Assembly (NCBI GenBank): GCA_964347565.1
Contig: CAYFZD010000001.1
Location: forward strand, 70,024-134,023
Source: an uncultured Pseudomonadales bacterium
GTDB lineage: Bacteria > Patescibacteriota > Microgenomatia > UBA1400 > UBA12108
Reading direction: 5' to 3'
Length of the DNA: 64,000 nucleotides
How positions within the stretch are numbered: the first letter of the stretch is position 1; each line of letters begins with the position of its first letter. This document shows positions 24,242-42,855 of this stretch, one piece after another. Both the position numbers and the translations under genes were made by a program. The notes beneath the pieces are model-generated. The model was given only the letters and a program-made list of their open reading frames with translations, was not told the DNA's origin and did not search any database.

Positions 24242-24673
24242 ATGTTTGTAGGTACATATTATCATTTACTCGATGAGAAGAACCGTGTCTCGGTTCCCAA
24301 ATCATTTCGCACCGAGCTCACCCCTGGATCGATCATCACCAAAGGGCTCGACGGCTGTCTCTTTATCTTTACCGGTGAGTCCTGGAGCAAGCTGGTAGAA
24401 AAACTGCAGTCACTCCCACTCACGAGCAAGCCTGCCCGTGATTTCCTCCGTCTCCTCACTTACCACGCGTCTCCCCTGGACACAGACAAGCTCGGTCGCA
24501 CTCATCTCCCTCAAAACCTGATCGACTTGGCTGAGATCAAAAAAGACGTCGTCTTCGCCGGCGCTCTCAGCAGGGTTGAAATCTGGGATAAATCCACCTA
24601 CCACAACTACGTTGATGGTCTCGTCGCACAAGAGAGTGAGCTAGAGTCATCACTGTCGGAGCTAGGAATCTAA
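24242..24673 (+). CDS. mraZ: transcriptional regulator MraZ
   Basis: MFVGTYYHLLDEKNRVSVPKSFR, and duplicated DUF199 halves each with the (D/E)xxR motif. Confidence 0.9.
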   Translation: MFVGTYYHLLDEKNRVSVPKSFRTELTPGSIITKGLDGCLFIFTGESWSKLVEKLQSLPLTSKPARDFLRLLTYHASPLDTDKLGRTHLPQNLIDLAEIKKDVVFAGALSRVEIWDKSTYHNYVDGLVAQESELESSLSELGI

Positions 24674-24674
24674 T

Positions 24675-25559
24675 ATGCCATACCCACTCCACACCCCCGT
24701 CATGCTAGAGGAAGTCATGCACTACCTCGCCCCAGCGCCGGGCAAAAGATACATCGACGCCACCCTCGGCTACGCGGGCCACACGCTCGCTCTCCTCAAA
24801 TCAGGCGCCGAAGTCTCTGGCATTGACCGTGATCTCGACTTGCTCACCCTCGCCGTCGAGCGCGTCACCAAGGAGGGTTATCTGCCTCAATTTACCCCGA
24901 TTCATTCCGCCTTTTCTGAGGCCCTAGACAAAGATAAACATATTTTAGAGGGGAAATTCGACGGGATCTTATTTGACCTCGGTGTCTCTAGCTATCAGCT
25001 CGACACTCCCGAGCGAGGATTCTCTTTCCGCTTCGACGCACCCCTCGATATGCGCATGGACAAGCGTCTTGGGGTCACGGCCGGTGACCTCGTCAATGGC
25101 CTGGGCAAAAATGAACTCGTAGAGCTCTTTACCGTACTGGGTGAAGAGGGGAATGCTAAACGGATCGTCAACGAAATTTGTGACCGCCGTCTCAAACACA
25201 AGATCGAGTCGACTGAAGAACTCGCTAAACTAATCGAGAGTGTAGTCGGTCGCTCCCGCGGTATCCACCCCGCCACCAAAGTTTTCCAGGCACTTCGCAT
25301 GGCCGTCAATAGTGAGCGGGAAGAGCTCAAAGCCGCACTGCCCTCGGCTTTGAGCTATCTCAAAGAGGGAGGAGTCCTGGTCGCCATCTCTTTCCACTCT
25401 CTGGAGGATAAGATTGTCAAAAGTTGGATCAACAACTCTGAGTCCGCCGGCCAAGTCGAGTCTCTCACCAAGGGCGTAGTCGAGTCCTCTCCGGAGGAAA
25501 TAGCCAAGAACCCGCGCTCTCGCTCCGCCAAGTTGCGGGCGCTCAGGAGGCTCTCATGA
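24675..25559 (+). CDS. rsmH: 16S rRNA (cytosine1402-N4)-methyltransferase RsmH (MraW)
   Basis: HTPVMLEEV...YIDATLGYAGHT...LFDLGVSSYQLD...ISFHSLEDKIVK are canonical RsmH blocks. Confidence 0.95.
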   Translation: MPYPLHTPVMLEEVMHYLAPAPGKRYIDATLGYAGHTLALLKSGAEVSGIDRDLDLLTLAVERVTKEGYLPQFTPIHSAFSEALDKDKHILEGKFDGILFDLGVSSYQLDTPERGFSFRFDAPLDMRMDKRLGVTAGDLVNGLGKNELVELFTVLGEEGNAKRIVNEICDRRLKHKIESTEELAKLIESVVGRSRGIHPATKVFQALRMAVNSEREELKAALPSALSYLKEGGVLVAISFHSLEDKIVKSWINNSESAGQVESLTKGVVESSPEEIAKNPRSRSAKLRALRRLS

Positions 25560-25825
25560 AGCTGATTAAAATTCTCTCCGCTATCATAGTTCTCTTGGTT
25601 ATCACGAATGTCACGCTGACCAATCGCTCGGTAGAGGACGGATTGACGCTTACCCACCTCTCAAAAGATATCTCGCAACTACAAAACCAAAACACTATCC
25701 TGCGCGCTAAGATTGCCTCAGCTGGCGCTTTGACAGGGATCAAAGAAAAACTGCTCTTAGCAGGTTATACCGAATCCCCTCGAGTTGTCGCTCTACCAGA
25801 CAATTCTGCGGTTGCTTCTCGCTAG
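25556..25825 (+). CDS. ftsL: FtsL-like cell-division protein
   Basis: 89 aa with a single N-terminal TM followed by a coiled-coil-like segment. Position between rsmH and ftsI is conserved. Confidence 0.6.
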   Translation: MKLIKILSAIIVLLVITNVTLTNRSVEDGLTLTHLSKDISQLQNQNTILRAKIASAGALTGIKEKLLLAGYTESPRVVALPDNSAVASR

Positions 25826-25842
25826 TCTATATAATCATCATC

Positions 25843-27588
25843 ATGCGTAGACGGATCCAAACAGTCTTTATCAGCTTCCTCTTTGTTTTAGGCGTGATTA
25901 TTCTGCGTCTGAGCTACTGGCAAGTCATCAAAACCGATGAACTCGCCGCCCAGGCACAGGGGCAGTATGCCTCCAAGGATGTTTTCGAAGGGGCCAGGGG
26001 TTCCATCATCACCGCCGATGGTCATCCTCTGGTACTCAACCAAGCCATCTATACTCTAGGCGCTTACCTCCCCAGCGTAGTCGATTCACCTCTCTCCATC
26101 GTCGAGCGTGTGATGCCTCTCATCCAACTCACTGTCGATGACCCAAACATTGCCACCGATAGTGCCAGGCTAGAAATTGCCCAAAAAGAGCTCATCACCA
26201 ATACTAGAGACACCATGCTCGAGCGGCTGGGTAAGACTGGGTATGTAACACTCTTGCGTGCCCTCTCGGTCAACGAAAAAGAAGCGCTGGTACAACTAGA
26301 TATTACCGGGCTGACCTTCGATCAGTCCTTTACGCGGGCTTATCCCGAGGCCTCCATGTCGGCTCATCTGACGGGCTTCGTGGGCAGAGATGATGTAGGG
26401 AGTCCCACAGGGTATTTTGGTCTTGAAGGATACTATAACCGCGAATTATCCGGGCGCAGCCGTATTGAGAAACAAGAGAAAGATGGCAGTGGTAATCCAC
26501 TGCTAGTGGGAGATTTCCAACTCTTGCCAGGTCGAGATGGTCGTACCCTCAAACTTCACCTCGACCGGGGGACCCAGTACGTCGTCGAAGCCGAGCTCAA
26601 AAAAGGACTCGAGCAATTCGGAGCTTCATCTGGGGAAGTCATTGTAATGGACCCCAAAACTGGGGGGATCTTGGCCATGGCGAGCTTGCCATCCTATGAT
26701 CCCGTCAAATTTCAGTTATATGACACCAGCTTGTACAAAAACCCCTCAGTCGCCAACTCATACGAACCAGGGAGCACTTTTAAAGTCTTAGTTATGGCTG
26801 CCGCCTTTAACGAAGGAGTCATTACAGAAAAAGATATTTGTGACATTTGTCGTGAGCCATATACCCTCGGTAAATACACCATCAAAACCTGGAACAACGA
26901 ATACAACTCAGATGCCACGCCAATTGATATCATCGTCCACTCAGACAACGTCGGCATGGTCTGGACACAACAGAAGCTCGGGGGAGAAAAAATGCTCGAA
27001 TATATCAAGAAATTTGGTTTTGGCCAAAAGACCGGGGTTGATATCCAGGAGGAATCATCACCCGCTTTGCGTGCCAAGTGGGGAGATATCGACTATGCCA
27101 CTTCCTCTTTTGGTCAGGGGATTGCAGTGACTAGCATTCAGATGCTCACCGCCGTAGGAGCCATCGCCAATCAGGGGAAACTCATGGAGCCGCATCTAGT
27201 GAGTAGTGTCATCGGTGAGACAGAAGTACCCATCTTGCCCAAAAGTCGAGGTGAGGTAATCACCAAGGAGACAGCGGATCGTATCACGGCTCTCATGGTC
27301 CAGGCGGTTGAACAAGGTGAGGCCAAGTGGGCCGCCCCCAAAGGGTACACGCTCGCCGGCAAAACTGGCACGGCTCAGATCGCGGTGGAGGGACATTATG
27401 ATCGAGAAAAAACAACTGCCTCTTTTGTGGGTTTTGCGCCAGCGCGAGATCCCAAGTTTGTGATGTTGGTCAAGTTGAGCGAGCCCAAGACGAGTCAATG
27501 GGCCGCCGAGACCGCCGCCCCACTCTGGTTTAAAATCGCCCAAAAACTGCTCGTCCGCTACAACGTGCCTCCAGACAAGGATTATTAA
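25843..27588 (+). CDS. ftsI: penicillin-binding protein (class B transpeptidase, FtsI/PBP3-like)
   Basis: N-terminal TM and PBP dimerisation region. The transpeptidase motifs are STFK (GSTFKVL), SDN (HSDNVG) and KTG (AGKTGTAQ). Confidence 0.9.
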   Translation: MRRRIQTVFISFLFVLGVIILRLSYWQVIKTDELAAQAQGQYASKDVFEGARGSIITADGHPLVLNQAIYTLGAYLPSVVDSPLSIVERVMPLIQLTVDDPNIATDSARLEIAQKELITNTRDTMLERLGKTGYVTLLRALSVNEKEALVQLDITGLTFDQSFTRAYPEASMSAHLTGFVGRDDVGSPTGYFGLEGYYNRELSGRSRIEKQEKDGSGNPLLVGDFQLLPGRDGRTLKLHLDRGTQYVVEAELKKGLEQFGASSGEVIVMDPKTGGILAMASLPSYDPVKFQLYDTSLYKNPSVANSYEPGSTFKVLVMAAAFNEGVITEKDICDICREPYTLGKYTIKTWNNEYNSDATPIDIIVHSDNVGMVWTQQKLGGEKMLEYIKKFGFGQKTGVDIQEESSPALRAKWGDIDYATSSFGQGIAVTSIQMLTAVGAIANQGKLMEPHLVSSVIGETEVPILPKSRGEVITKETADRITALMVQAVEQGEAKWAAPKGYTLAGKTGTAQIAVEGHYDREKTTASFVGFAPARDPKFVMLVKLSEPKTSQWAAETAAPLWFKIAQKLLVRYNVPPDKDY

Positions 27589-27617
27589 TCGCTAATCTGC
27601 TAAAATGTGGGCTGACC

Positions 27618-28904
27618 ATGCACAAAATATTGTATTATCTACGCAAATATCTACGCCCCCTCGCTCCTCAGATCTTGGTTAACTACCTCTACCATCTCCC
27701 CAAGGCATATCTTGCGGCACGTATTTATGGCAACCCAGGTGAAGATTTGGAAATTATCGGAGTGACGGGGACCGACGGAAAGACCACTACCTCATCTCTG
27801 ATCTATCACATCTTAAAAACAGCCGGCAAAAAAGTCGCCCTGATCTCGACAGTCGACGCCAAAATCGGGCGCAAAACTCTCAAAACTGGCTTTCATGTCA
27901 CCTCCCCCAATCCTTTTGCGCTTCAGGCCCTCTTGCGCCGTATGCGTTCCCAAAAGATCCGCTACGTCGTCCTCGAGGTGACTAGCCACGGTCTCGATCA
28001 ATTCCGCGTATATCCAATACGTCCCAAAATTGCTGTCTTGACCAATATCACCCACGAACACCTAGATTATCACAAGACTCTCGAGGCCTACCGTGAAGCC
28101 AAGCTTAAACTTTTTCGTCATGCACAACATGCGGTCGTCAATAAGGATTTGCCCGATTTTGCCCTGATCAATACGCGCCTTCGCAAGGTCATGTTCTCGA
28201 CATATTCTCTGCAAGTAGACTCCCAAATGAAACCAGATCATATCGAGTACTTACCAGGTAGTACGCTTTTTACGCTCGGCCAGACAAACTATTCGCTTCC
28301 CCTCACGGGTGAATACAATCTCTACAACGCGCTCGCGGCGATCTCCACGGCGCTCATCCTCGAGATTAGCCCGACCGACATCAAGCGCGCCCTCGCTAGC
28401 TTCAAGGGAGTCAAGGGGAGGCTCGAAGCAGTCGAGAACGTGAGGGGCATCCACGCCTTTGTCGACTTCGCTCACACTCCAGGTGCACTCCGCGCTGTCT
28501 TGACCAACCTCAGAGCCAAGAAAAAATCCTCCGAAAAATTAATTGTGGTTTTTGGCGCGGCCGGAGAGCGCGACGACTCCAAGCGCCCACTCATGGGGGC
28601 CGTGGCCGCTGAGCTCGCAGATAAAATCGTCTTAACGAGCGAGGATCCTCGTCACGAAGATCCCAAAGACATTATCAAAGAGATCCTCTCTGGAGTCCCC
28701 AAAAAGAAAAGACCAGACGTAGTGATTGAAATTGATCGCGCCCAGGCTATTGATCGAGCGATCAACCACCTAGCCAAGAGGGGTGATTGGGTGGTAAGTT
28801 GTGGTAAGGGCCACGAAGAATCGATGAATCTCGATGGCTTTACCGAGACCCCCTGGTCTGAGGTCGAGGCATTACAAAGAGCCTTATCTAAAAAAATAAT
28901 ATGA
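27618..28904 (+). CDS. murE: UDP-N-acetylmuramoyl-L-alanyl-D-glutamate--diamino-acid ligase MurE (short N-terminal domain)
   Basis: Mur ligase P-loop IIGVTGTDGKTTT. The HVTSPNPFALQALLRRM block resembles the MurE TTPEAxxLxxxL region, and there is a C-terminal Mur ligase domain. Only about 50 aa precede the P-loop. Confidence 0.8.
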   Translation: MHKILYYLRKYLRPLAPQILVNYLYHLPKAYLAARIYGNPGEDLEIIGVTGTDGKTTTSSLIYHILKTAGKKVALISTVDAKIGRKTLKTGFHVTSPNPFALQALLRRMRSQKIRYVVLEVTSHGLDQFRVYPIRPKIAVLTNITHEHLDYHKTLEAYREAKLKLFRHAQHAVVNKDLPDFALINTRLRKVMFSTYSLQVDSQMKPDHIEYLPGSTLFTLGQTNYSLPLTGEYNLYNALAAISTALILEISPTDIKRALASFKGVKGRLEAVENVRGIHAFVDFAHTPGALRAVLTNLRAKKKSSEKLIVVFGAAGERDDSKRPLMGAVAAELADKIVLTSEDPRHEDPKDIIKEILSGVPKKKRPDVVIEIDRAQAIDRAINHLAKRGDWVVSCGKGHEESMNLDGFTETPWSEVEALQRALSKKII

Positions 28905-29668
28905 TACAAGATTTTTCACACACCGCCGCTATTATTCTTGCTGCTGGTCGCGGTACTCGCATGAATGCTAAAACAAAAAACAAAGTGGCTTTCAAGCTAA
29001 ACGGTCAGCCGATGATTGCCCACACTGTTGATCACCTTTATCAAGTTGGGATAAATAATATTATTGCGGTCGTCGGATATCAAGCCGACTCGGTTCGTCA
29101 AGCTCTGGGAAACAAGGTCAAATATGCTCATCAAACTGACCAAATGGGAACAGGCCATGCCGTCAAAGCCTCCCTCCCGTACCTCGATTCTACTGTCCAG
29201 ACTTTACTCACGGTCTACGGCGATGACTCTGCCTTCTATCCTCCTTCGTTATTCACCGAAATGGTTGCCAAGAAAGAGAGCTTAGGTTGCGATATTTTGT
29301 TTCTGACTATCCACAAAGACGATCCAACTGGTTTGGGACGAATAGTTAGAGATGCTCAGGGCAAGATTTTGCGCATTGTCGAAGAGAAGAATGCCACGGA
29401 AGATGAACGTAAAATCCGAGAGATCAATACAGGATTCTACTGCTTTGACCGAGATTTTCTCGTCCAATATATCGAACAAATCCAGAAAAATCCTGTCTCA
29501 GGTGAGTATTACTTAACAGACATGGTTGAGATAGCTATAAAAAACGGCAAAAAGGTTGAAGCGCTCTTTATCAAAGATGACTCTATCTGGCACGGAGTCA
29601 ACTACCGTGCCGATCTCGTTAAGGCAAAGAAAAAATCAATATCAAAGGATTATGCGCAACAAATATAA
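28901..29668 (+). CDS. UDP-GlcNAc pyrophosphorylase-like nucleotidyltransferase (GlmU N-terminal domain only)
   Basis: AIILAAGRGTRMN...KVAFKLNGQPMIAHTVDHL matches the GlmU uridyltransferase domain. No left-handed-helix acetyltransferase domain follows (255 aa). Confidence 0.7.
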   Translation: MIQDFSHTAAIILAAGRGTRMNAKTKNKVAFKLNGQPMIAHTVDHLYQVGINNIIAVVGYQADSVRQALGNKVKYAHQTDQMGTGHAVKASLPYLDSTVQTLLTVYGDDSAFYPPSLFTEMVAKKESLGCDILFLTIHKDDPTGLGRIVRDAQGKILRIVEEKNATEDERKIREINTGFYCFDRDFLVQYIEQIQKNPVSGEYYLTDMVEIAIKNGKKVEALFIKDDSIWHGVNYRADLVKAKKKSISKDYAQQI

Positions 29669-30650
29669 AATAGTCGCCATCGGTGGAGGTACGGGGACTT
29701 TTACCTTACTTACAGGTCTCAAAGAATATAGCGATCTTGATATCACAGCGATTGTCACCATGGCAGATGATGGTGGTAGCAACAAAGTCTTACGAGACGA
29801 ATTCGGACTCCTGCCTACCAGTGGGATTCGCCAAGCAATCGTTGCGCTCTCCAAAGACACGACACTCCTACGCAAATTATTTGAATATCGATTCTATCAA
29901 GGCACGGGGATTACGGGTATGACATTTGGCAACCTCTTTATCGCCGCCGTTTCCGATATCTTGGGGTCACAAAAACAAGCCATCGAAGAAACTTGTGCTC
30001 TCCTTGGTGTCCAAGGTCATATCTTGCCGGTCAGCTACGAAAACACATCCCTAGTCGCCACGTATCAGGATGGCACAGAGGTGCTGGGCGAGCACTATAT
30101 CGACCTCAGTAACCCCAAAGTTGCCAAGCAAAGGATCATCAATCTTCGTTCTATCCCCAAAATAAAAATTGACGACGCCGCCAAATCTGCCATTTTGCAC
30201 GCCGACATGATCGTGATTGGGCCAGGAGATTTATATACCAATACCATTGCCAATTTAGTGGTGAGCGGAGTCAAAGAGGCAATAGAAGGGAGTATGGCCA
30301 AAGCGGTATTTGTAATGAACTTGATGAGTCGCTCAGGCGAGACCTACGCCTACAAAGCTAGTGATTTTTTGGATGATTTGTCTAAATACATAAATCCTGA
30401 TCGACTTGACTACATAGTCGAGAATATCGAAACTTCTCATAGTCCAGCCGTTCTCAAAAAATATGCGGCCGAAGGATCTGTCCCCGTAGAAGATGATTTA
30501 GATGAAGTGTGGCACCGTGCCAAAGTAATTAGAGCGAGAATGCGCTCCAGCCACAAAGTAGTAAAAAACAAAAGTGATACACTGCCCCGTAGCATGGTGC
30601 GTCACAACCCAGATTTACTGGCCAAAGAAATAATAAAGTTGTTAAAGTAA
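29652..30650 (+). CDS. YvcK/GlmR-family (CofD-like, UPF0052) gluconeogenesis factor / UDP-sugar-binding regulator
   Basis: YKIVAIGGGTGTFTLLTGLKEY...DITAIVTMADDGGS is the signature N-terminus of YvcK/CofD-like proteins. Start at MRNKYK overlaps the upstream stop. Confidence 0.85.
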   Translation: MRNKYKIVAIGGGTGTFTLLTGLKEYSDLDITAIVTMADDGGSNKVLRDEFGLLPTSGIRQAIVALSKDTTLLRKLFEYRFYQGTGITGMTFGNLFIAAVSDILGSQKQAIEETCALLGVQGHILPVSYENTSLVATYQDGTEVLGEHYIDLSNPKVAKQRIINLRSIPKIKIDDAAKSAILHADMIVIGPGDLYTNTIANLVVSGVKEAIEGSMAKAVFVMNLMSRSGETYAYKASDFLDDLSKYINPDRLDYIVENIETSHSPAVLKKYAAEGSVPVEDDLDEVWHRAKVIRARMRSSHKVVKNKSDTLPRSMVRHNPDLLAKEIIKLLK

Positions 30651-30654
30651 TTTT

Positions 30655-31917
30655 ATGAAAGCATATTTTATCGGTCTTAAAGGGGTGGGCATGACGTCCC
30701 TGGCTCTCGCCATGCAAGATGATGGTTGGTCGGTATCTGGCTCAGATACAAACGAATCATTCATTACCGATGATATCCTGCGTGCGCGTAACCTAGGGGT
30801 CCGTCCCCTAGGGTCTGAAGTTCCAGAGGGGACGGACCTAATTGTGTATTCTGCTGCCTACTCACCTCCCCAAACCAAGATCAGGACTCTCTCCCTAGCG
30901 CAGGCACTAGCCGAATTTGTCCAAGACAAAAAGGTCATCGCGGTCGCTGGCGTGGGTGGCAAGACTACGACTACTGCTATGCTCGCCGCTCTCTTCCACT
31001 TTGCTGGGCGTGATGTTGGTTATTACGTCGGTACGAGCTCCATCGCAGGGCTAGAAGCCCCAGGGGCCAGTGGGAGCGATCCCTACTTCGTGGTCGAGGC
31101 TGACGAGTATGCCATCAGTAAAACTGATCCTCGCCCCAAATTCGCCCTACTCTCACCAGAGATTGTTATCACCACCAATATTATTCACGACCACCCCGAT
31201 ATCTATCCCGACGAAGCTGCCACTCGCCAAGTCTTTGCCGACCTCGTCGCCTCCATTCCCCCGGGTGGCACCTGGATCTGCAATCCCGCTGACCCGCTCA
31301 CCGCAGAAATACTAAGAGGATCAGTTCCCCAGTGTCGTGTGATCACCTACAATAGTGATTTACCTGATTTGGATTTACAGGTTTTTGGTGCACAAAATCA
31401 ACTCGATGCCCACGCCGCTGTCCTGGCCGGCGTGGCTGCTGGTTTGACCCGTGAGCAAGCGATCAGAGCGATCCATAACTATCGCGGGGCAGGGCGGCGC
31501 CAGGAGAGTCATGGTGAGGTAGCAGGACGCCTCCTCTATGATGACTATGGTCACCATCCGCGCGAGATCGAGCTTACCCTCAAGTCTTTTAAAGAGCATT
31601 TCCCCACTCGTCGACTTCTCCTCGTCTTCGAGTCCCACACTTATAGTCGGACTGAGTCACTCCTTTCTGAATTTGCAGCCGCTCTCTCCCTCTCTGACCT
31701 GACTTTTATCATGCCAATCTTCGAGTCGGCGCGTGAAAAAGGGACTCCCCATACGGTAACCACCGAATCATTCGCATCACTCATCGAAGGTGCTATTCCA
31801 CTTACCTGGGACACAGCCGCCTCTACAGTTTGGGACTCATCCCAGCCTGGCGACCTGATCCTCACGATGGGAGCTGGCTTCGTCTACAAACTCCACACGG
31901 AGTTTAAGCTAAAATAA
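30655..31917 (+). CDS. murC: UDP-N-acetylmuramate--L-alanine ligase MurC (or Mpl-like)
   Basis: YFIGLKGVGMTSLALAM N-terminal Rossmann motif of MurC/Mpl, followed by the Mur ligase P-loop AVAGVGGKTTTTAML. Confidence 0.8.
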   Translation: MKAYFIGLKGVGMTSLALAMQDDGWSVSGSDTNESFITDDILRARNLGVRPLGSEVPEGTDLIVYSAAYSPPQTKIRTLSLAQALAEFVQDKKVIAVAGVGGKTTTTAMLAALFHFAGRDVGYYVGTSSIAGLEAPGASGSDPYFVVEADEYAISKTDPRPKFALLSPEIVITTNIIHDHPDIYPDEAATRQVFADLVASIPPGGTWICNPADPLTAEILRGSVPQCRVITYNSDLPDLDLQVFGAQNQLDAHAAVLAGVAAGLTREQAIRAIHNYRGAGRRQESHGEVAGRLLYDDYGHHPREIELTLKSFKEHFPTRRLLLVFESHTYSRTESLLSEFAAALSLSDLTFIMPIFESAREKGTPHTVTTESFASLIEGAIPLTWDTAASTVWDSSQPGDLILTMGAGFVYKLHTEFKLK

Positions 31918-31921
31918 CACC

Positions 31922-32893
31922 ATGAACTATACCTTCATCACTCAATCGCTAGGAGTTGACAGACTCAAGCAGAATGAACCACTCGCCAAACATACCTATT
32001 TCAAGCTCGGTGGTCCCGCTGACCTACTCTACGAAGCCAAAACCAGTGAAGAGCTACTGGGGGCCGTCCAGTCTGCCATCCTCTACAAAATTCCCTATCT
32101 GGTAATAGGCGGAGGTAGCAACATTCTCGTCTCTGACTTAGGGTTTCGCGGATTAGTCATCAAAAACAAAACTAGTCAGATCCAACTCAAGGGTTTCGCC
32201 GGGGGTGTGGAGAGAGGGAAATTGGATCTCAAAGAAGCGATTGTTCAGGCAGATTCCGGCGTTCCCGCCAACCTGCTGATCCGCTACACCCTCGACCAAG
32301 GATTGGCCGGATTAGAGGATATGTTGGGTCTACCAGGAACGGTGGGAGGTGCCATTTATAACAACTCCCATCATCTCGACAAACTCTTTGGAGAACACAT
32401 TCTCGAGGTTGAGGCAATTGATCGTGAAGGAAAGATCAAGAAATATACTCAAAAAGATCTCCAATTTTCATACGATTATAGTATTTTTCACAAGACCAAA
32501 GAAATTATACTTTCGGCCTCATTTCAGCTTAAGAGAGGGGATAAAGACCAATTGTGGGGGATCGCCAATGCCGCCGTGCAACGTCGTGCGACCACCCAAC
32601 CACTGGGAGTCCCTAGCTCAGGGTGCATGTTCAAAAATATTCCGCTCTCCGATACTATGCGCCTAGGACTCTCCACTTCCTCGGCTGGGTACTTGATCGA
32701 CAAGGCCGGACTCAAGGGGGAGAGAGTGGGGGGAGCCAGCGTTTCTGATGTCCACGCCAACTTTATCGTGAATGACGGCACCGCCACGAGCCAGGATGTA
32801 CTCGATTTGATCAAGGTTGTCCAAGCAAAGATCAAAGCCAAATTCGGCGTTGACTTGGAATTAGAGGTAATTATCATTAGTCAAAACACCTAA
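31922..32893 (+). CDS. murB: UDP-N-acetylenolpyruvoylglucosamine reductase MurB
   Basis: FAD-binding domain (KHTYFKLGGPADLLYE...YLVIGGGSNILVSD) and C-terminal MurB domain (GCMFKN...AGYLID). Confidence 0.9.
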   Translation: MNYTFITQSLGVDRLKQNEPLAKHTYFKLGGPADLLYEAKTSEELLGAVQSAILYKIPYLVIGGGSNILVSDLGFRGLVIKNKTSQIQLKGFAGGVERGKLDLKEAIVQADSGVPANLLIRYTLDQGLAGLEDMLGLPGTVGGAIYNNSHHLDKLFGEHILEVEAIDREGKIKKYTQKDLQFSYDYSIFHKTKEIILSASFQLKRGDKDQLWGIANAAVQRRATTQPLGVPSSGCMFKNIPLSDTMRLGLSTSSAGYLIDKAGLKGERVGGASVSDVHANFIVNDGTATSQDVLDLIKVVQAKIKAKFGVDLELEVIIISQNT

Positions 32894-34587: not shown

Positions 34588-35612
34588 ACAACTTACTTGG
34601 CTTTCTCCTCTTTTCTTTTACCATCAACGCCGCCCTTATCGTCCCTTTCATCAATTTACTCTATAGCCTCAAGTTCCAGCGACCCGGGCGTGGGACAGCT
34701 GATTTTATGGGTACCGTGAATTCCATTTTCAATCGACTTCATAAGAAGAAAGTCGGCACCCCTGTGGGTGGGGGACTACTCATTATTGTCACTACCACTC
34801 TGTTGTTTACCCTTGTGATAGGGATGTTGCGCTTAGTCGGCGCCGATCTACAGAGTGTTTATGATTATCGGGGCGAGATCAATGTCATTTTTGCCACTTT
34901 TATCCTCTACGGCTTGCTCGGGCTCTACGACGACATCATCAAATTCTTTGGTAAAACCACCTATCTGGTAGGGATCTCTTGGCGCTTTAAATTTATCGCT
35001 CAACTCGTGATCGGTCTGGGGATTGGCTGGTATCTCTATCAAGTACTAGGTATCAGCATTATCAATGTTCCCTACTTTGGGGTCGTCGACCTAGGCTGGT
35101 TTTTTGTCCCGCTCTCGGCCTTTATCATCACCGCCTTTAGCAACGCCGTCAACGTCACCGACGGACTCGATGGCCTCGCCGGGGGACTCCTGATGATCAC
35201 ACTCTTCTCCCTCATTATCCTCGCCACCGCTATCCTAGATACGCCAATTACTCTTTTTATTGCTCTCTGGCTGGGCGCTATTTTGGCCTTTCTCTACTTT
35301 AATACTTATCCCGCTCGTCTCACCATGGGGGACGTCGGCGCACTCTCTTTTGGAGCCACGCTCGCGGTCATCGGTCTCATGCTGGGTAAAATCATCGCCG
35401 TTACTATCATCGGCGGACTCTTTGTCCTTGAGATTGCTTCAAGTTCTATCCAAATGTTTGGCAAACGCTATCTCGGCCGTCGCCTCTTACCCCTCTCTCC
35501 TTTCCACCTTTGGCTCCAGTCAATTGGCTGGGAAGAAACTAAGATCGTGAGCCGCGCCTGGCTCGCTGGCATTATTTTGGCCCTGTTTGGTCTCTGGCTG
35601 GCGTTTTTATGA
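34584..35612 (+). CDS. mraY: phospho-N-acetylmuramoyl-pentapeptide transferase MraY
   Basis: NAVNVTDGLDGLAGG and the other MraY blocks, about 10 TM helices. Confidence 0.95.
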   Translation: MNNLLGFLLFSFTINAALIVPFINLLYSLKFQRPGRGTADFMGTVNSIFNRLHKKKVGTPVGGGLLIIVTTTLLFTLVIGMLRLVGADLQSVYDYRGEINVIFATFILYGLLGLYDDIIKFFGKTTYLVGISWRFKFIAQLVIGLGIGWYLYQVLGISIINVPYFGVVDLGWFFVPLSAFIITAFSNAVNVTDGLDGLAGGLLMITLFSLIILATAILDTPITLFIALWLGAILAFLYFNTYPARLTMGDVGALSFGATLAVIGLMLGKIIAVTIIGGLFVLEIASSSIQMFGKRYLGRRLLPLSPFHLWLQSIGWEETKIVSRAWLAGIILALFGLWLAFL

Positions 35613-36256
35613 GCTCTGGACCTATCATCGTTTTTGATTCGGGAATTGGCGGGTTGTCGATTTATCGTCCCCTGAAAAGGGCTTTACCCCACGAAAACAT
35701 TATTTACTTCAGTGACCCGAATCATTTTCCCTATGGAGATAAGAGCTCTACCTGGTTATCTGAAAGATTCACTGAGCTTTGTCAAGAATTCAGTCTACTC
35801 TCTCCCAAGCTTGTTGTCCTAGCCTGTAATTCTGCCACCACTAACATCATCAGTGAGGTACGCTCTCACCTCAGTTGTCCAGTCGTAGGGGTAGAGCCAG
35901 TCATTAAACCACTCTCTCAATTTACCAACTCTCTCGCACTGATGACCAAGGCGACAGCCAACTCAAAGAGCACTTTGGAGCTACTCAAAAAATATGGTCC
36001 CCATGTCAAGATTTTTGTTCCTACAGGACTAGCGGTTGCGATCGAGTACAACGATTATCATCAAGTAAAAAAAAGTATCTCACAGATTAAAAAGACTGTT
36101 CTTAAATATCAGTGTGAGGCCGTGGGATTGTCATGTACTCACTACCCCTTAATACTTCCACTACTTCAAGAAGCCATGCCAAACATCAAATTTATTGACC
36201 CCTCTGAGGCAGTCGTCCAAGAGATCCAGAGGGTGCTAAAATTGAACCAAACATGA
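35609..36256 (+). CDS. murI: glutamate racemase MurI (short)
   Basis: IIVFDSGIGGLSIY...YFSDPNHFPYGDKS...LVLACNSATT, including the first catalytic Cys motif of glutamate racemases. 215 aa. Confidence 0.8.
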   Translation: MSSGPIIVFDSGIGGLSIYRPLKRALPHENIIYFSDPNHFPYGDKSSTWLSERFTELCQEFSLLSPKLVVLACNSATTNIISEVRSHLSCPVVGVEPVIKPLSQFTNSLALMTKATANSKSTLELLKKYGPHVKIFVPTGLAVAIEYNDYHQVKKSISQIKKTVLKYQCEAVGLSCTHYPLILPLLQEAMPNIKFIDPSEAVVQEIQRVLKLNQT

Positions 36257-37473
36257 ATGCATTTGAGGCAGAAATAAAAGGTAAGCAAGTCCTAGTTTTT
36301 GGTCTAGGTAATCAGGGTGGTGGAACAGGTGATTTGGCCTGGCTACAGAAGCACGGAGCCGTCGTTCGTGCCTCTGATAAAGATCTGACTCTGGTCGCAG
36401 AGGGACAAACTCCAGAGCAAATCGATTGGGCAGACATTATTATCAAAAATCCTGGTGTCCCAGATGATCATAAACTTCTCACTTACGCGAAATCATCGGG
36501 GAAGCTCATCTATACTAGCGCGGCAATCTTTGTGAAATATGCACCTATTAAGACCCTCGGCATTAGTGGGACACGTGGAAAATCTACGACCGCTGCCCTT
36601 ATCCACGCCATTTTGGAAAAAGTATACCCAGGCCAGGTATTATTTGGGGGCAATGTCGCTGGCACATCTTGCCTGTCTCTCTTTGACGAACTAGAAGGCA
36701 AAAAATATGCAGTCCTCGAACTCTCCTCTTTCCAGCTCCACAATTTTCATGAACTAAAGATCAGCCCTAATTTCGCTTTATTAACCAATATTTATCCAGA
36801 TCACCTCAATCGCTACCCCGACATGGAGAGTTACTTATATGACAAGCAAGCCATCTATCTCTACCAGAATCCAGGTGACTATCACGTCGAATATCCAGAT
36901 CCCCAGACAGTACGTGATTGGGAGACACCTCTGCCAGGAATTCATAACCTTCAAAACATTGCTGGAGCTTGGGGTATTGTTTCACGGTTGGGAGTCTCTG
37001 AGAATGTTGCTCGTCAAGTCGTATCCGAATTTACTGGTTTACCTTTTCGCCAAGAAAGGATTGCCACCATAAAAGGCATTACTTATATCAACGACACCAC
37101 TTCCACTACTCCCACTGCCGCCATGATGGCTCTCCAAGCAGCCACCATGCCCACAATCTGGATTACTGGAGGTGATACCAAAAATCTGCCATACAATGAA
37201 CTGTTGGATGTAGTCAAGACCAACCATCTACTCAAAAATATTGTCATACTTGGTTCCAAAAATATTCCTGATTACACTGCAGGTTTACTAAAAATAGCCC
37301 AAGATAAAATTATTGGTACAGTCCAGTCGATGCAAGCAGCAGTCGCGATGGCAAACAAAGTTGCCAAGCCAGGGGATGCCGTCCTCTTGTCCCCCGGCTT
37401 CGCCTCTTTTGACCTCTTTCAAAACGAATTCGATCGTGGTCGACAATTTAATGCGATTGTCACCTCACTATGA
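36253..37473 (+). CDS. murD: UDP-N-acetylmuramoylalanine--D-glutamate ligase MurD
   Basis: N-terminal Rossmann VLVFGLGNQGGG, Mur ligase P-loop LGISGTRGKSTTAALI, and C-terminal domain. Confidence 0.85.
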   Translation: MNAFEAEIKGKQVLVFGLGNQGGGTGDLAWLQKHGAVVRASDKDLTLVAEGQTPEQIDWADIIIKNPGVPDDHKLLTYAKSSGKLIYTSAAIFVKYAPIKTLGISGTRGKSTTAALIHAILEKVYPGQVLFGGNVAGTSCLSLFDELEGKKYAVLELSSFQLHNFHELKISPNFALLTNIYPDHLNRYPDMESYLYDKQAIYLYQNPGDYHVEYPDPQTVRDWETPLPGIHNLQNIAGAWGIVSRLGVSENVARQVVSEFTGLPFRQERIATIKGITYINDTTSTTPTAAMMALQAATMPTIWITGGDTKNLPYNELLDVVKTNHLLKNIVILGSKNIPDYTAGLLKIAQDKIIGTVQSMQAAVAMANKVAKPGDAVLLSPGFASFDLFQNEFDRGRQFNAIVTSL

Positions 37474-38549
37474 AAAAAATCAGTTTCTCCCTCTCTACTC
37501 GCATCATTCTAACGACGCTGCTCCTCTTAGGTTTTGGCCTCACCATGATCTATAGTGCCTCGGTCGCCGAGGGCGCTCGCGACTTTGGCAACAAATGGCA
37601 CTTTGTTCTCCTCCAACTGAAATGGGCAGGAGCCGGACTCTTGGGTATGTTTATCCTCAGCTTTATTCCTCCTCGGATTTGGGAGAAACTCGCACCCTAT
37701 ATTCTGCTTTTTGGTTTGACGCTCCTTCTTCTCGTGGCCATCCCCGGTATTGGTACAAAAGTCCAGGGTGCTAGACGCTGGCTCGTTCTCCCAGGCTTCA
37801 CCCTCCAGCCCTCAGAGCTTATCAAGATGATCGAAGTTATTTATCTTTCTTCCTGGCTTCATGCTCGTCGTGTCACGCCCACCCAATTTGGTGTATTCAT
37901 CGCCGTCTTGGGTGGACTCATTATGCTAGAGCCCGATATGGGGACTGCCCTGGTTGTGACTTTACTGGGTCTTACGATGTATTTCCTCTCTGGTTATCCG
38001 CTCAAACATTTGGCAATGCTTGGTGGAGCAGGCTTGGTTTTGGCCACCATCTTCATTGTCAGCGAGCCTTATCGTTTGGCGAGGGTAAAAACCTTTGTCG
38101 ACCCACTCCACGATACTCAGGGTAGCTCCTATCATATCCGCCAGGTCCTCCTCTCGTTGGGCTCGGGCGGAGTCTCTGGACTTGGGATCGGGCGCTCTCG
38201 GCAGAAATACGCCTACCTCCCCGAGGCGACGACTGACTCCATTTTCGCGGTAGTAGGGGAGGAGCTGGGCTTCATCGGCGGCGTTGCCCTGATTTTAGCT
38301 TTTCTCTATTACCTCTCTTTGATTTTCAAGCTGGCCGCGGCCGAAACCGACAAATTTGCCTCCTCACTTGTAGCGGGAGTCGGAGCATGGATCGGTTTGC
38401 AAGTATGTCTCAATTTGGCCGCGATGGTTGCCTTAACTCCCTTGACCGGCGTGCCACTCCCGCTTGTCTCCTACGGCGGGTCCGCCCTCGTCACCATGCT
38501 CGCAGGCGTCGGCTTCATCCTCTCTGTTGCTCGCTACGGTAAACACTGA
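37470..38549 (+). CDS. ftsW: SEDS-family peptidoglycan glycosyltransferase FtsW
   Basis: 10-TM SEDS architecture with the conserved C-terminal block LTPLTGVPLPLVSYGGSAL. dcw position between murD and murG. Confidence 0.85.
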   Translation: MKKISFSLSTRIILTTLLLLGFGLTMIYSASVAEGARDFGNKWHFVLLQLKWAGAGLLGMFILSFIPPRIWEKLAPYILLFGLTLLLLVAIPGIGTKVQGARRWLVLPGFTLQPSELIKMIEVIYLSSWLHARRVTPTQFGVFIAVLGGLIMLEPDMGTALVVTLLGLTMYFLSGYPLKHLAMLGGAGLVLATIFIVSEPYRLARVKTFVDPLHDTQGSSYHIRQVLLSLGSGGVSGLGIGRSRQKYAYLPEATTDSIFAVVGEELGFIGGVALILAFLYYLSLIFKLAAAETDKFASSLVAGVGAWIGLQVCLNLAAMVALTPLTGVPLPLVSYGGSALVTMLAGVGFILSVARYGKH

Positions 38550-38571
38550 TCCACTTGCTATACTTAAGTTC

Positions 38572-39633
38572 ATGAAAACAATCGTCATCACTGGTGGTCA
38601 TCACAACTCGGCGCTCGTTGTCGCTCAGGAATTGGTCAAGCGGGGACACAAAGTAGTCTGGATCGGACATCGCCACAGCAGTAGGGGCGATATTCAAGAC
38701 AGCGCCGAATATCTCGAGGTTACCTCTGCCCAGATTCCCTTTCATGATCTCCTCGCTGGCAAGCTGGTATTTGATCTGCATGAGCTCCTGCGACTCCCAT
38801 CCGGGTATTATTCAGCCCGTAAAATTTTGCAGAAAATCCGCCCTCACGCCATTCTTAGTTTTGGTGGGTATTTGGGAGGAACTGTGGCAATTGCGGGCAA
38901 AGTGCTTGGGATACCCATCTATCTCCACGAGCAAACCATCACTGCTGGACGCGCCAATAAATTGATCGGCCGACTCGCCAAGCGGATTTATCTGACTTGG
39001 CCAGAATCGGCCCAACATTTTAATTCTTCCAAAATCCTCGTCGTGGGTCTCCCCCTCAGAACCAGTATCTTGAGTGCCAAACCCAAATCACTCTTCACGC
39101 GCAAAAAGCCCACTCTCCTGGTGATGGGTGGCAAACAGGGGGCTCATATTCTCAATCAATTTGTTTTCTCCCATCTTACTGACTTACTCACTCACGTAAA
39201 CGTTGTTCACCAAACTGGCACCAACTCTACGACTCGTGATTACGAGCGCGCCCTCGCCCTCCAGGATTCACTCGCCAGTCTCGCTGATTGCTATCTCCCC
39301 CTAGGATACATTACTGAGAGTGAAATCGGCACCTACCTGCGTAGTGCCGACTATTATTTTGGCCGCTCTGGCGCACATATTACTTATGAGCTCGCGGTCC
39401 TTGGTTTACCCGCATTACTGGTCCCCTTGATGTCTACGCACGACCAGGAGCAACTCAAGAATGCCCATGTGCTTTCAAAAGCTAATTTAGGAATAGTTCT
39501 TGCCCAAAGCGAACTGACTTTACCCCATTTCCTCACCAAGCTTACCCAACTCAAATCACTCTCAGGTCAAACTCTCGCCCTTCCCAAAAATAGCGCCCCA
39601 CAGTTGGTCGACGACTTATGTCAAAATATTTAG
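38572..39633 (+). CDS. murG: undecaprenyldiphospho-muramoylpentapeptide beta-N-acetylglucosaminyltransferase MurG
   Basis: MKTIVITGGHHNSALVVAQEL, a GT28 N-terminal G-loop, and C-terminal GT-B domain. The start was chosen at the internal ATG downstream of the ftsW stop. Confidence 0.85.
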   Translation: MKTIVITGGHHNSALVVAQELVKRGHKVVWIGHRHSSRGDIQDSAEYLEVTSAQIPFHDLLAGKLVFDLHELLRLPSGYYSARKILQKIRPHAILSFGGYLGGTVAIAGKVLGIPIYLHEQTITAGRANKLIGRLAKRIYLTWPESAQHFNSSKILVVGLPLRTSILSAKPKSLFTRKKPTLLVMGGKQGAHILNQFVFSHLTDLLTHVNVVHQTGTNSTTRDYERALALQDSLASLADCYLPLGYITESEIGTYLRSADYYFGRSGAHITYELAVLGLPALLVPLMSTHDQEQLKNAHVLSKANLGIVLAQSELTLPHFLTKLTQLKSLSGQTLALPKNSAPQLVDDLCQNI

Positions 39634-40334
39634 TCTTTACCCGCGAAATCATCGCACCTTCTCTCGTGGTGCTTGGTGTTTTAGCTCTCGCCTACATCAC
39701 GATATACTCTTCCTTTTTCAAAATTACCTCGATTGACTGCACCCAAGATTTCCGTCCGTGCGAGAATCCTGCCCTCCTCAGTGAACTCGACAAACTTGTT
39801 GGTCAAAATCTCTTTACCCTCCCTGTGTCCAAACTCAAAACCAGACTACTCTCGGGAGATTTTATGTTACGTGAGTTAGAAATACACAGACGATTACCCA
39901 GCCACCTTCAATTTACCCTCCAGTCAGTCTATCCCGTGGTGTCACTCCAAATCTCTGGGGATCCTAGCTGGGTAATCTTTGATTCCCAATTCCGTGTCAT
40001 TGGACGTCACTTGAGCGACCCCAATGTCCCGACGGTGATCGTGTCAGGTCCACTGACTTTAACTGTTGGTAAGGTCATCCCCGATCAAGACATCATTCGC
40101 TCACTTGCGCTCGCCCTCCGCCTCAGGGACTCGTTGATCTCATTCAAAACACTTACGCTCGTGGATCCTGACACCCTCGAGCTCAAGCTAGATAAAGGCA
40201 TAGTCGCGATCTTTACTCCCAAAATCGAGGAGTCTTCCCAGCTCCACTCATTGCAAGCCGTCCTCTCTGACGCTACAATTATGCAAGGAGTGCACGTTAT
40301 TGATGTGCGTTTCGCTCAGCCCGTGTTACGCTAA
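39618..40334 (+). CDS. ftsQ: FtsQ/DivIB-like cell-division protein
   Basis: Single N-terminal TM (PSLVVLGVLALAYITIY) followed by a POTRA-like and beta domain. Positioned between murG and ftsA. Confidence 0.55.
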   Translation: MSKYLVFTREIIAPSLVVLGVLALAYITIYSSFFKITSIDCTQDFRPCENPALLSELDKLVGQNLFTLPVSKLKTRLLSGDFMLRELEIHRRLPSHLQFTLQSVYPVVSLQISGDPSWVIFDSQFRVIGRHLSDPNVPTVIVSGPLTLTVGKVIPDQDIIRSLALALRLRDSLISFKTLTLVDPDTLELKLDKGIVAIFTPKIEESSQLHSLQAVLSDATIMQGVHVIDVRFAQPVLR

Positions 40335-40424
40335 TAAAGATGATAAGATCAATCATATGACCAACAATATAAATTCTAATAAAAATCGAAATGGTTGCAG
40401 TGTAACGAAGTGGAACGAAACACC

Positions 40425-41717
40425 ATGAAAAAGATATCTCAATATGCGGTTGTAGATCTAGGCTCTTCCAAAATCACCTGTATCATTGCCACGCGGGGAG
40501 ACGAGGATAGTACCTTGCGGGTCGTAGGAGTCGCGAGTGTTACTAGTCGAGGTATCCGCAAAAGTCAAATTGTGGATATTGAGGAGTCGATCGAAGCCGT
40601 TACTGAAGCTGTCGAATCGGCCGAGCGCATGGCTGGGCTCTCGATCAAAGATGCGACCGTTTCCGTCTCTGGCATTCACGTCGAATCACTCAACTCCAAA
40701 GGTTTGGTCGCTGTGCAAGATCAGGGAGGCGAGATCACCTCTACCGACGTGCTGCGCGTGATCGACGCCGCCAAGGCCGTCCCTCTCCCTCCCCAAAGGG
40801 AGATCCTGCATGTGATTCCTCGTTTTTTCCTCGTCGACAACCAAGATGGCATCAAAGATCCCGTCGGAATGTCTGGTGTGCGACTAGAGGCCGAGGCCCA
40901 TTTGATCACCGGCTCCTCCGTGAACCTCAAAAACATCGCGAGGGTTATGAGTGAAATAGGCGTGGACACGCGCAGTATCACTTTCGCCGGTTATGCCTCC
41001 TCGCTCTCTACGCTTACCGATACCGAAAAAGAGCTCGGTACCGTGATTATCGATATAGGGGGAGGTACCACCAGCCTCTGTGTCTACCAAGAGGGGGCTC
41101 TCTCTCATTCGGCCGTGTTACCAGTCGGCGCCAAAAATATCACCAATGATATCGCTATCGGACTACGCGTCAGCCTAGATAGCGCCGAGATCATCAAACG
41201 CAATTTAGCGGAGGGTGAGCAAATTGCCAAAGTGTTAGACCCTAAGAGTGTCAGTAGCAAAAAGCAAGCCGACGAAATAGATCTCCACAAACTGGGTTTA
41301 AAAGATGCCCCACGCAAAATTTCCCGTAAGGCAGTTGTCGAGGGAATTGTCCGTCCTCGTCTCAATGAGATCTTCGAGCTCATCAAAGCCGAGCTCATCA
41401 AGGCGGGCATGGGGGGCAAGACTCCCGCCGGACTCGTCCTCACAGGGGGAGGGGCTATGACGTATGGTCTTAGCGATACCGCCCGTAAAATCCTTAATAT
41501 GCAATCACGCATTGCCACCCCGGTGGGTCTCACTGGGCTAGTTGATGAGATCAATACACCCGAATACGCGACCGCCGCCGGATTACTCATCCTCTCTCAG
41601 CGGGATGAAGGACGCCCAGCAAGTTCTGGACTCAAACTCCCCAAATTGAAGTTTAAATTGCCGACTTCGCATTCTGTGAAAAAAGTGATAGACTTCATTA
41701 AGAGTTTCCTGCCCTGA
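40425..41717 (+). CDS. ftsA: cell-division protein FtsA
   Basis: [16 protein letters not shown] actin-fold phosphate-1 motif, [10 protein letters not shown] phosphate-2 motif, and a C-terminal amphipathic tail. Confidence 0.9.
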
Positions 41718-41727
41718 TAGGAAATCT

Positions 41728-42855
41728 ATGGGTCTAGTAAAACCAGATTTAAACGCGGTCGCCAAAATCAAAGTGATTGGAATTGGAGGTGGAGGCAACA
41801 ACGCCGTGGCCTCGATGGTCACCACTGGTAAGATCAAAGGTGTCGAATTCGTCTCTATCAATACCGACTCGCAAGCACTCCTCAATAACCCAGCCAGTGT
41901 CAAAATCCAGATAGGAGAGAACCTCACCAAGGGTCTAGGTAGCGGCGCTGATCCCGAGATCGGAGCCCAAGCCGCCCAAGAATCTCGTGAAAAAATCAAA
42001 GAGCTTCTCATGGATACCGACATGGTCTTTATCACCGCTGGTATGGGCGGTGGAACTGGCACAGGAGGCGCTCCCCTCATTGCCGAGATTGCGAAGGAAG
42101 CGGGTGCCCTGACTGTCGCTGTCGTCACCAAGCCCTTTGCCTTCGAAGGCATCCGTCGCATGAGTGTGGCCGAGGACGGGATCGAGGAGCTCAAAGGCAA
42201 GGTAGATACTCTCATCGTGATCCCCAATCAAAAACTGATGGACGTGGTAGACAAAAAAATGACGCTCCAGGAGGCCTTCCGGGTCGCTGACTCGGTGCTT
42301 GGCCAAGGAGTGCAAGGGATCTCTGATCTCATCACCGTGGCTGGGCTCATCAACGTCGACTTCGCCGACGTTCGCGCCATCATGACCGACGCCGGTACTG
42401 CGCTCATGGGCGTGGGTATGGGAACGGGAGAGAATCGCGCCCAAATGGCGGCTCGTACTGCTATTTCTTCTCCATTACTTGAGGTTAAGATCGACGGGGC
42501 CCGTGGGATTCTCTTCAATATTACTGGTGGCCCGAGTCTCACCATGACCGAGGTCTCCGAGGCCGCGGAGATGATCTCCACGCACGCCGACCCCGACGCC
42601 AATATCATCTTTGGCGCTACGATCGACGAGGCGATGGGTGACCAGATCAAGATCTCGGTGATCGCGACCGGGTTCGATAATACAAGGGGAGGATTTGGCA
42701 ATCTCCAGGGCATTGGTCAGTCTGCGACGATCAAGTATGACCCCTCAGATGATGACACCCCCAGCGACGACGACGATTCCACCGCGCCTCCCAAACCACC
42801 CGCCTCCGACTCTAGCGATCCCTTCGATATCCCGGCGTTCTTAAGACAAAATTAG
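41728..42855 (+). CDS. ftsZ: cell-division GTPase FtsZ
   Basis: [10 protein letters not shown] tubulin signature, the NTDAQAL-like region, an acidic linker and the conserved C-terminal FtsA-binding peptide DIPAFLR. Confidence 0.97.

Follow-up and report, generated by a model that had tools for sequence, protein, structure and literature searches.

A block of genes for cell division and the cell wall (dcw) in a Microgenomatia bacterium raises the question of where, or whether, the addition of D-alanyl-D-alanine (D-Ala-D-Ala) to peptidoglycan precursors is encoded. The block occupies positions 24242-42855 of the 64,000-nucleotide (64-kb) stretch of contig CAYFZD010000001.1 analyzed here, hereafter termed the window. 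According to the list of open reading frames (ORFs) and to matches with Pfam and NCBIfam families, it consists of 19 consecutive and tightly packed + strand genes in the order mraZ-rsmH-ftsL-ftsI-murE-glmU(N-domain only)-yvcK-murC-murB-murA-dgkA-mraY-murI-murD-ftsW-murG-ftsQ-ftsA-ftsZ. These assignments bear out the description, made in an earlier note on this DNA, of nearly the whole cytoplasmic lipid II pathway gathered in one place, and murF and ddl are absent both from the cluster and from the whole window. We interpret the locus as a form of the Microgenomatia dcw super-operon particular to this lineage, in which the mobile ddl-murF module most likely has its place in another part of the genome, as it does in Bacillus, and we give this reading a probability of roughly 0.7-0.8.

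The three Mur ligases encoded in the block are the following:

27618..28904, + strand: murE, meso-diaminopimelate (DAP)-type, short form
30655..31917, + strand: murC, UDP-N-acetylmuramic acid (UDP-MurNAc):L-Ala ligase, divergent
36253..37473, + strand: murD

The ligase starting at 27618 scored 415 bits with the MurE model TIGR01085 (cutoff 257) and 393 bits with the DAP-type model NF001126 (cutoff 373). With the MurF model TIGR01143 (cutoff 288.6) it reached 92.8 bits, which was the best TIGR01143 score in the window. Hidden Markov models (HMMs) built from Microgenomatia sequences, i.e., from members of the Candidate Phyla Radiation (CPR), gave the same ligase 526 bits for MurE versus 107 bits for MurF. 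The ligase at 30655 obtained 264 bits with the MurC model TIGR01082, under the cutoff of 335, the next best model being Mpl with 142 bits; it contains all three Mur ligase domains of Pfam and scored 377 bits with the CPR MurC HMM. The ligase at 36253 scored 293 bits with the MurD model TIGR01087 (cutoff 212) and 313 bits with the CPR MurD HMM. A neighbor-joining tree of the window ligases together with E. coli and CPR MurC, MurD, MurE, and MurF placed the three in the MurC, MurD, and MurE groups, and none with MurF. Judged by their sequences, the three ligases are MurE, MurC, and MurD with no MurF among them; the family models and the phylogeny agree with the assignments that the earlier note had made, and the clustering of one ligase with MurF, which that note had named as grounds for dropping its claim, appears neither in the tree nor in the HMM scores.

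It could still be argued that one of these ligases is wrongly assigned or bifunctional, for example that the MurE, which is atypical, is a D-Ala-D-Ala-adding enzyme. The UDP-binding domain 1 (~90 amino acids) is missing from its N-terminus; it possesses the domains PF08245 and PF02875, and matches positions 70-471 only of the profile. Its residues 30-426 align with residues 89-482 of PDB 4bub, and solved MurE structures align from residue 89-132 onward. The ftsI-murE gap is 29 nt, with 28 codons from the upstream in-frame stop to the murE ATG. The scores of MurC and MraY below their curated NCBIfam cutoffs could also be taken to favor misassignment. Nevertheless, the MurE scores 415-526 bits on MurE models as opposed to 93-107 bits on MurF models, and the tree separates all three ligases from MurF. 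Moreover, the domain-1-less form is common to all Microgenomatia relatives (400-445 amino acids, versus 500-550 amino acids in the Chloroflexota matches) and is not a MurF substitute, because 18 related loci encode a genuine, separate MurF besides it. We consider misassignment or bifunctionality to be very improbable.

Short MurE ORFs were seen in L004-L047 (our numbering of related loci). In the MurF proteins of relatives (ORFs of L007, L011, L014, L017, and L021-L023), the alignment with E. coli MurF likewise begins only near residue 90, and two MurF architectures were distinguished (L009, L042, L005, L008, L018, L028, L036, L038, L060, and L064). The long type carries a hydrophobic N-terminal extension of 120-220 amino acids that replaces domain 1, and the short type bears a nearly invariant C-terminal C-x4-C-H-x-Y-x2-C-x2-C, possibly a zinc ribbon.

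No MurF or Ddl was found elsewhere in the window either. When the whole 64 kb was searched by tblastn with E. coli MurF and DdlB, only cross-matches to the three ligases were returned, and the same was true of the CPR MurF HMM against all six frames. A Ddl HMM built from CPR and E. coli sequences found nothing better than E = 0.9 in the six frames. Pfam scans of the window ORFs, which covered nearly all those of at least 150 amino acids on the strand that carries the genes, together with several of lesser length, revealed no ATP-grasp, MurF, or alanine racemase. The earlier note had reported both genes missing from the cluster; tblastn, HMMs, and Pfam find neither of them anywhere in the 64 kb.

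The same gap recurs in other members of the clade to which the organism, a Microgenomatia (CPR) bacterium, belongs. Metagenomes are the source of the MurE proteins nearest to that of the window (more than 120 clusters, at 68-100% identity), and those with names are labelled Woesebacteria, Collierbacteria, or Microgenomates. Among the matches listed in a scan of species-representative genomes were metagenome-assembled genomes of Microgenomatia and, more distantly, of Chloroflexota, with 38-50% identity. Three other genomes, with MurE proteins 70-80% identical, belong to the clade of the window: L084 (the 964,590-bp JGI contig Ga0376277_0000019), L180 (GCA_027372535.1), and L181 (GCA_964397885.1); L085, an ENA contig, is the same organism as L084, whose JGI contig probably comes near to being a complete genome. 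In the regions of roughly 20 kb compared, all three share the order murE-glmUN-(yvcK)-murC-murB-murA-dgkA-mraY-murI-murD-ftsW, and HMMs detect no MurF or Ddl there. Between the window and L084, FtsI, MurE, and MraY are 77-89% identical, which argues that the wall pathway is under purifying selection.

This recurrence also disposes of a technical explanation, i.e., that assembly or binning removed murF and ddl by mis-joining or collapsing the sequence between murA and mraY. The window does come from a metagenome-assembled contig, as such an artefact would require, but the same murA-dgkA-mraY junction occurs in independent JGI, ENA, and NCBI assemblies (L084, L085, L180, and L181), and in the window the junction has no gaps and includes a 4-nt gene overlap. 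As the order recurs in independent assemblies, we regard the artefact as excluded for practical purposes.

One clade member, L180, carries insertions in this region (13330-14732 and 17043-17369). Genes for a D-isomer-specific 2-hydroxyacid dehydrogenase and a NUDIX hydrolase are inserted between murC and murB, and an EamA-like fragment precedes dgkA. The dehydrogenase belongs to the family of VanH and D-lactate dehydrogenase; if it formed D-lactate, its presence in an operon for peptidoglycan might point to D-Ala-D-Lac chemistry.

Is the arrangement unusual for the class? BLAST and HMMs served to annotate 80 loci derived from genomes, and in 27 of these the murE-to-mraY interval was fully covered. 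Microgenomatia normally have the enlarged layout, in which murC, murB, and murA stand behind murE, frequently accompanied by yvcK and a GlmU-like gene. It is no peculiarity of this genome, which weakens the oddity implied in the earlier note. The gene murF is present in the cluster in 18 of the 27 informative loci, usually directly upstream of mraY, and missing from the cluster in the other 9; in three Levybacteria-type loci (L043, L050, and L072) it lies between ftsI and murE. A ddl gene occurs in the cluster in only 4 genome-derived loci, always adjoining murF, and lies outside the cluster in most relatives. The arrangement in L007, L021, and L023 is ddl-murF-mraY. A metagenomic locus, L098 (Ga0315279_10000032), carries the complete set in the order mraZ-rsmH-ftsI-murE-murC-murB-murA-ddl-murF-mraY-murI-murD-ftsW-murG-ftsQ-ftsA-ftsZ. 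The order in the window is that of L098 minus ddl-murF, with dgkA taking the slot that abuts mraY and with glmUN and yvcK added after murE. In three further loci (L008, L009, and L095) the order is murF-dgkA(-mraY), suggesting that dgkA was already in place when murF left. Clusters of dcw genes, CPR included, were surveyed by Megrian et al. 2022, as cited in PMC10221324. The literature that we searched contained no discussion of the murF/ddl distribution in Microgenomates.

Examples of these genes outside the cluster exist as well, none of them assignable to the clade of the window. A stand-alone murF (P0395; L091 and L092) is found in the CPR-like context rpsB-tsf-frr-rseP-cmk-x-murF, and another (P0248; L093) lies beside pilin and TrwB-like genes, again in a CPR-like context. 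Divergent murF/ddl pairs are found on 7-8.5-kb contigs that have no other dcw gene (L101 and L104), and L177 has a stand-alone ddl. Several candidates for the clade's own genes were discarded, those for MurF having been chosen by amino-acid composition and by the identity to be expected with the L021 MurF (about 42-47%): P0250 is not from a CPR genome and has complex I genes nearby; P0255 sits in a cluster; and the ddl of L110/L177, on contigs of 119-149 kb, has no link to the clade, although its GC content and its origin in the sample series of L086 had made it a promising candidate.

The reference cluster of E. coli (mraZ-rsmH-ftsL-ftsI-murE-murF-mraY-murD-ftsW-murG-murC-ddlB-ftsQ-ftsA-ftsZ) has in common with the window the runs mraZ-rsmH-ftsL-ftsI-murE, mraY-(x)-murD-ftsW-murG, and ftsQ-ftsA-ftsZ, as well as the single strand and the tight packing. 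In contrast to E. coli, the window has murC moved forward beside murE; murB, murA, the glmU N-domain, yvcK, dgkA, and murI added; and murF and ddl missing. With the full Microgenomatia super-clusters (L098, L007, L021, and L023) it shares the class-typical order and the domain-1-less MurE, and it differs from them in that the slot between murA and mraY, filled there by ddl-murF or murF, is occupied in the window clade by dgkA. Bacillus subtilis has a dcw cluster without murF and ddl, a separate ddl-murF operon, and normal D-Ala-D-Ala-ended precursors. The window clade resembles it in having a cluster without both genes, and would probably resemble it in that ddl and murF travel as a pair; the separate operon is documented in B. 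subtilis, whereas in the window clade we infer it.

The transpeptidase encoded in the block bears on whether the D-Ala-D-Ala step is needed at all. The STFK311, SDN367, and KTGT507 of FtsI align with the catalytic motifs SxxK, SxN, and KTG of E. coli FtsI, and a DD-transpeptidase requires a D-Ala-D-Ala donor. Because FtsI keeps all three motifs, pentapeptide precursors ending in D-Ala-D-Ala are probably still made and, as far as these residues tell, probably still used. By analogy with Bacillus, murF and ddl are probably encoded elsewhere in the chromosome.

Several results weigh against relocation. No murF, ddl, or alr of the window clade was found among the matches listed, and 9 related loci likewise have no murF in the cluster. 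A profile search with the short-type Microgenomatia MurF and a search with the long-type MurF of Beckwithbacteria each gave, among the matches listed, none on contigs carrying a clade MurE, the 964,590-bp contig included. A search of representatives at 50% identity, with cluster look-ups for ten matches, provided no clade MurF, and a metagenome scan with the CPR Ddl alignment did not match Ga0376277_0000019. The protein searches for a clade MurF covered the best 80-150 matches, which were dominated by other families, and their power was low. These negatives carry little weight because a clade orthologue, at about 40-45% identity to the queries, would be outranked.

The same negatives, i.e., no clade MurF or Ddl among the matches listed in any search made, can be read as true loss, in which the clade would have neither enzyme and would rely on lipid II with a tripeptide stem, on scavenged material (D-Ala-D-Ala, muropeptides, or UDP-MurNAc-pentapeptide from a host or the environment), or on an unrecognised enzyme. 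Conservation of the murF/ddl-less cluster in four clade genomes is compatible with such a loss, and partner-supplied enzymes are known in the mealybug symbionts Moranella and Tremblaya, which have a mosaic peptidoglycan pathway with host-encoded murF and ddlB. That system would be an analogue only if the clade truly had no MurF and Ddl and depended on a partner; unlike the mealybug endosymbionts, CPR are extracellular epibionts, and no sign of partner-supplied enzymes was seen here. On the other side, FtsI retains all the DD-transpeptidase motifs, which call for a D-Ala-D-Ala donor, and a tripeptide stem cannot be cross-linked by DD- or LD-transpeptidases. All other steps of the pathway are kept and conserved, ddl and murF are commonly found outside dcw clusters, and the searches that failed to find them were low-powered. 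The scavenging lifestyle of CPR episymbionts, which do not synthesize amino acids, nucleotides, or lipids (PMC7143001), would fit a loss.

The uridyltransferase of the block points in a similar direction. The GlmU of the window comprises 255 amino acids and matches positions 2-236 of the 452 of the profile, with LAAGRGTRM intact, and the C-terminal left-handed beta-helix, i.e., the acetyltransferase half, is missing; hence it is a GlmU-type uridyltransferase and not a bifunctional GlmU. A uridyltransferase-only GlmU suggests salvage of N-acetylglucosamine (GlcNAc) rather than de novo acetylation of glucosamine-1-phosphate, which again would suit a scavenger that had lost the D-Ala-D-Ala step. 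The sole hexapeptide-repeat acyltransferase in the window (7938-8558, 206 amino acids) lies in a glycosyltransferase cluster. Taking both sides together, we consider true loss unlikely, and slightly less likely still the specific version in which a well-sampled clade encodes neither MurF nor Ddl genome-wide, although its operon for lipid II and the divisome is complete and conserved and its DD-transpeptidase looks active, and has D-Ala-D-Ala outsourced or made by an unrecognised enzyme. Relocation of the ddl-murF module remains our preferred reading. The absence on which the earlier note remarked is real in the window and yet less odd than it appeared, given that 9 of 27 relatives have no murF in the cluster, that ddl mostly lies outside it, that stand-alone copies exist, and that the FtsI active site is intact.

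If relocation is correct, the block would work as follows. A single transcription unit would probably start upstream of mraZ, at a conserved promoter that carries MraZ boxes. The GlmU N-domain would convert GlcNAc-1-phosphate into UDP-GlcNAc, alongside a regulator of the YvcK/GlmR type, and MurA and MurB would lead to UDP-MurNAc. The stem peptide would be extended to the tripeptide by MurC, by MurI plus MurD, and then by the DAP-type MurE. Ddl and MurF would act from outside the operon for the D-Ala-D-Ala step, their genes being held by sister lineages between murA and mraY as ddl-murF or murF; in the window clade this module would have left the cluster, so that dgkA now abuts mraY. MraY and MurG would form lipid I and lipid II, and the DgkA-type kinase would recharge the lipid carrier. 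FtsW and FtsI would polymerize and cross-link the septal wall, with FtsL, FtsQ, FtsA, and FtsZ serving in the divisome.

The remaining genes of the block, and the gene that closes it, are as follows:

24242..24673, + strand: mraZ, operon transcriptional regulator (PF02381, 99 bits; two MraZ repeats)
24675..25559, + strand: rsmH (mraW), 16S rRNA m4C1402 methyltransferase (PF01795, 289 bits)
25556..25825, + strand: ftsL-like small bitopic protein, 89 amino acids (from its position between rsmH and ftsI and its architecture only)
25843..27588, + strand: ftsI, class B penicillin-binding protein (PBP), septal DD-transpeptidase (PF00905, 248 bits; PBP_dimer, 45 bits)
28901..29668, + strand: glmU N-terminal half, GlcNAc-1-phosphate uridyltransferase (NF010934, 225 bits; PF00483)
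29652..30650, + strand: UDP-GlcNAc-binding regulator of the yvcK/glmR family (TIGR01826, 259 bits, cutoff 196; PF01933, 247 bits)
31922..32893, + strand: murB (NF010480, 276 bits, cutoff 259)
32914..34227, + strand: murA (TIGR01072, 409.5 bits, cutoff 392.7)
34240..34587, + strand: small lipid kinase of the dgkA family (PF01219, 101 bits; 4-nt overlap with mraY)
34584..35612, + strand: mraY (TIGR00445, 155.5 bits, below the cutoff of 192; PF00953, 103 bits; 89% identity to the L084 orthologue)
35609..36256, + strand: murI, glutamate racemase, short with 215 amino acids (TIGR00067, 145.5 bits, cutoff 146.65)
37470..38549, + strand: ftsW, SEDS glycosyltransferase (PF01098, 315 bits)
38572..39633, + strand: murG (PF03033 and PF04101; translation inspected)
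39618..40334, + strand: ftsQ/divIB-like bitopic protein (position between murG and ftsA, N-terminal transmembrane helix, sub-threshold POTRA_1 with E = 0.017)
40395..41717, + strand: ftsA (PF14450, 114 bits; SHS2_FTSA, 107 bits)
41728..42855, + strand: ftsZ, last gene of the block (PF00091, 170 bits; FtsZ_C, 121 bits)
42857-43363, minus strand: greA, convergent, closing the block (PF01272/PF03449)

Neighboring genes in the block overlap by up to 17 nt or are separated by at most 60 nt, seven junctions being start/stop overlaps of 4 nt, and the frequency of promoter-like and terminator-like sites within the block does not exceed that in shuffled sequence. Pfam and NCBIfam matches support the set of supply and recycling genes that the earlier note had placed between ftsI and mraY (GlmU uridyltransferase, yvcK/glmR, murC, murB, murA, and dgkA), and its murI between mraY and murD is found there. 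The MurI carries FDSGIGGL, ACNSAT, and SCTHYP, with both catalytic Cys motifs present. The 89-amino-acid FtsL-like protein matched no Pfam family; it has a hydrophobic helix at its N-terminus followed by a heptad-like stretch, and is 55% identical to its L084 counterpart. By analogy with the homologues of Gram-positive bacteria, which we take to be undecaprenol kinases, the DgkA-family kinase probably acts on undecaprenol. Two starts were revised: that of yvcK is most likely 29652, as called on the independent Logan contigs L002 and L003, instead of TTG 29556 in the mechanical ORF, and that of murG is most likely the first ATG at 38572 instead of TTG 38464.

Measured against the dcw cluster, the 5' end is present as mraZ-rsmH(mraW) followed by ftsL and ftsI at 24242-27588, with ftsL recognized by position and architecture only. 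The core genes mraY, murD, ftsW, and murG follow in conserved order with murI inserted after mraY, and the 3' end is ftsQ-ftsA-ftsZ, in which ftsA and ftsZ have strong matches and ftsQ a weak one to POTRA_1 only. A murF after murE and a ddl in the cluster, which belong to the complete version of 17 genes and can be dispensed with in many phyla, are not found in the window. Many accepted dcw clusters are likewise without murF and ddl (PMC8871954), so their absence does not exclude membership.

Some relatives have MurC ORFs of 650-790 amino acids (L037, 3410-5365; L028, 3300-5663; L022, 11187-13178). No separate murB was detected in the L037 locus. These observations suggest MurC fusions, possibly MurC-MurB.

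The region upstream of mraZ contains a candidate control element:

24179..24229, + strand: putative Pmra promoter and MraZ operator (from sequence reading and conservation)

The putative promoter consists of TTGACA (24179-24184), a 17-nt spacer, and TTAAAT (24202-24207). Two GTGGG-type boxes follow, GTGGA (24215-24219) and GTGGG (24225-24229), with a distance of 10 bp between them and of 13 nt to the ATG of mraZ. The stretch 24111-24241 is about 85-90% identical to L084/L085, compared with about 80% for the proteins, and the block of promoter and boxes is almost invariant. A consensus promoter scanner did not flag this upstream block, whose TTAAAT has no A at position 2. Going by the function of MraZ boxes in other bacteria, the boxes are consistent with a putative MraZ operator, and the whole block is probably a single operon under MraZ control.

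Flanking the dcw block in the window are a glycosyltransferase/polysaccharide cluster, recO, glyS, ileS, rodA, type IV pilus genes, and parB. The large region at 666-20378 is devoted to cell-surface polysaccharide and glycosylation, with a DegT aminotransferase, several GT2 and GT4 glycosyltransferases, two PMT_2 proteins, a Wzy-like protein, a mannose-1-phosphate guanylyltransferase, a Bac_transf priming transferase, and a 661-amino-acid DUF4012 protein; from the guanylyltransferase onward it is syntenic in L084 and L180. No Pfam family matches the ORF of 264 amino acids at 22695-23489, which is flanked by glyS and by the hydrolase gene (23493-24110) located ahead of mraZ; it is kept directly after glyS in L084, L085, L180, and L181 (265-269 amino acids). 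A second SEDS protein, RodA-like (46765-47835; PF01098, 292 bits), is encoded after ileS and has no adjoining class B PBP; the 64 kb contain no PBP other than FtsI.

Every 2-kb bin of 1-64000 has a negative GC skew (about -0.04 to -0.22), including those with minus-strand genes at 1702-4022, and nearly all window genes lie on the C-rich strand. The pattern is similar to one reported for the Microgenomatia order UBA1400, a G/C strand disparity over the whole chromosome (PMC7143001). Stronger skew was seen in L037, L027, L052, and L031, all of which have no murF in the cluster. We dropped GC skew as a marker of the clade, as the member L180 has only -0.017 and the skew varies within the clade.

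What the locus means depends on where MurF and Ddl are. Were the loss real, the clade would offer a free-standing example, from bacteria, of a peptidoglycan step that is outsourced; an episymbiont could then outsource the D-Ala-D-Ala step, which would bear on the host dependence of CPR and on their susceptibility to D-cycloserine and to vancomycin-type inhibitors. If, as we favor, murF and ddl lie elsewhere in the chromosome, the block would be an ordinary variant, particular to its lineage, of the gene cluster most conserved among bacteria, and its value would be as a record of how CPR gathered genes for supply (GlmU N-domain and YvcK), MurI, and DgkA beside those that build the wall.

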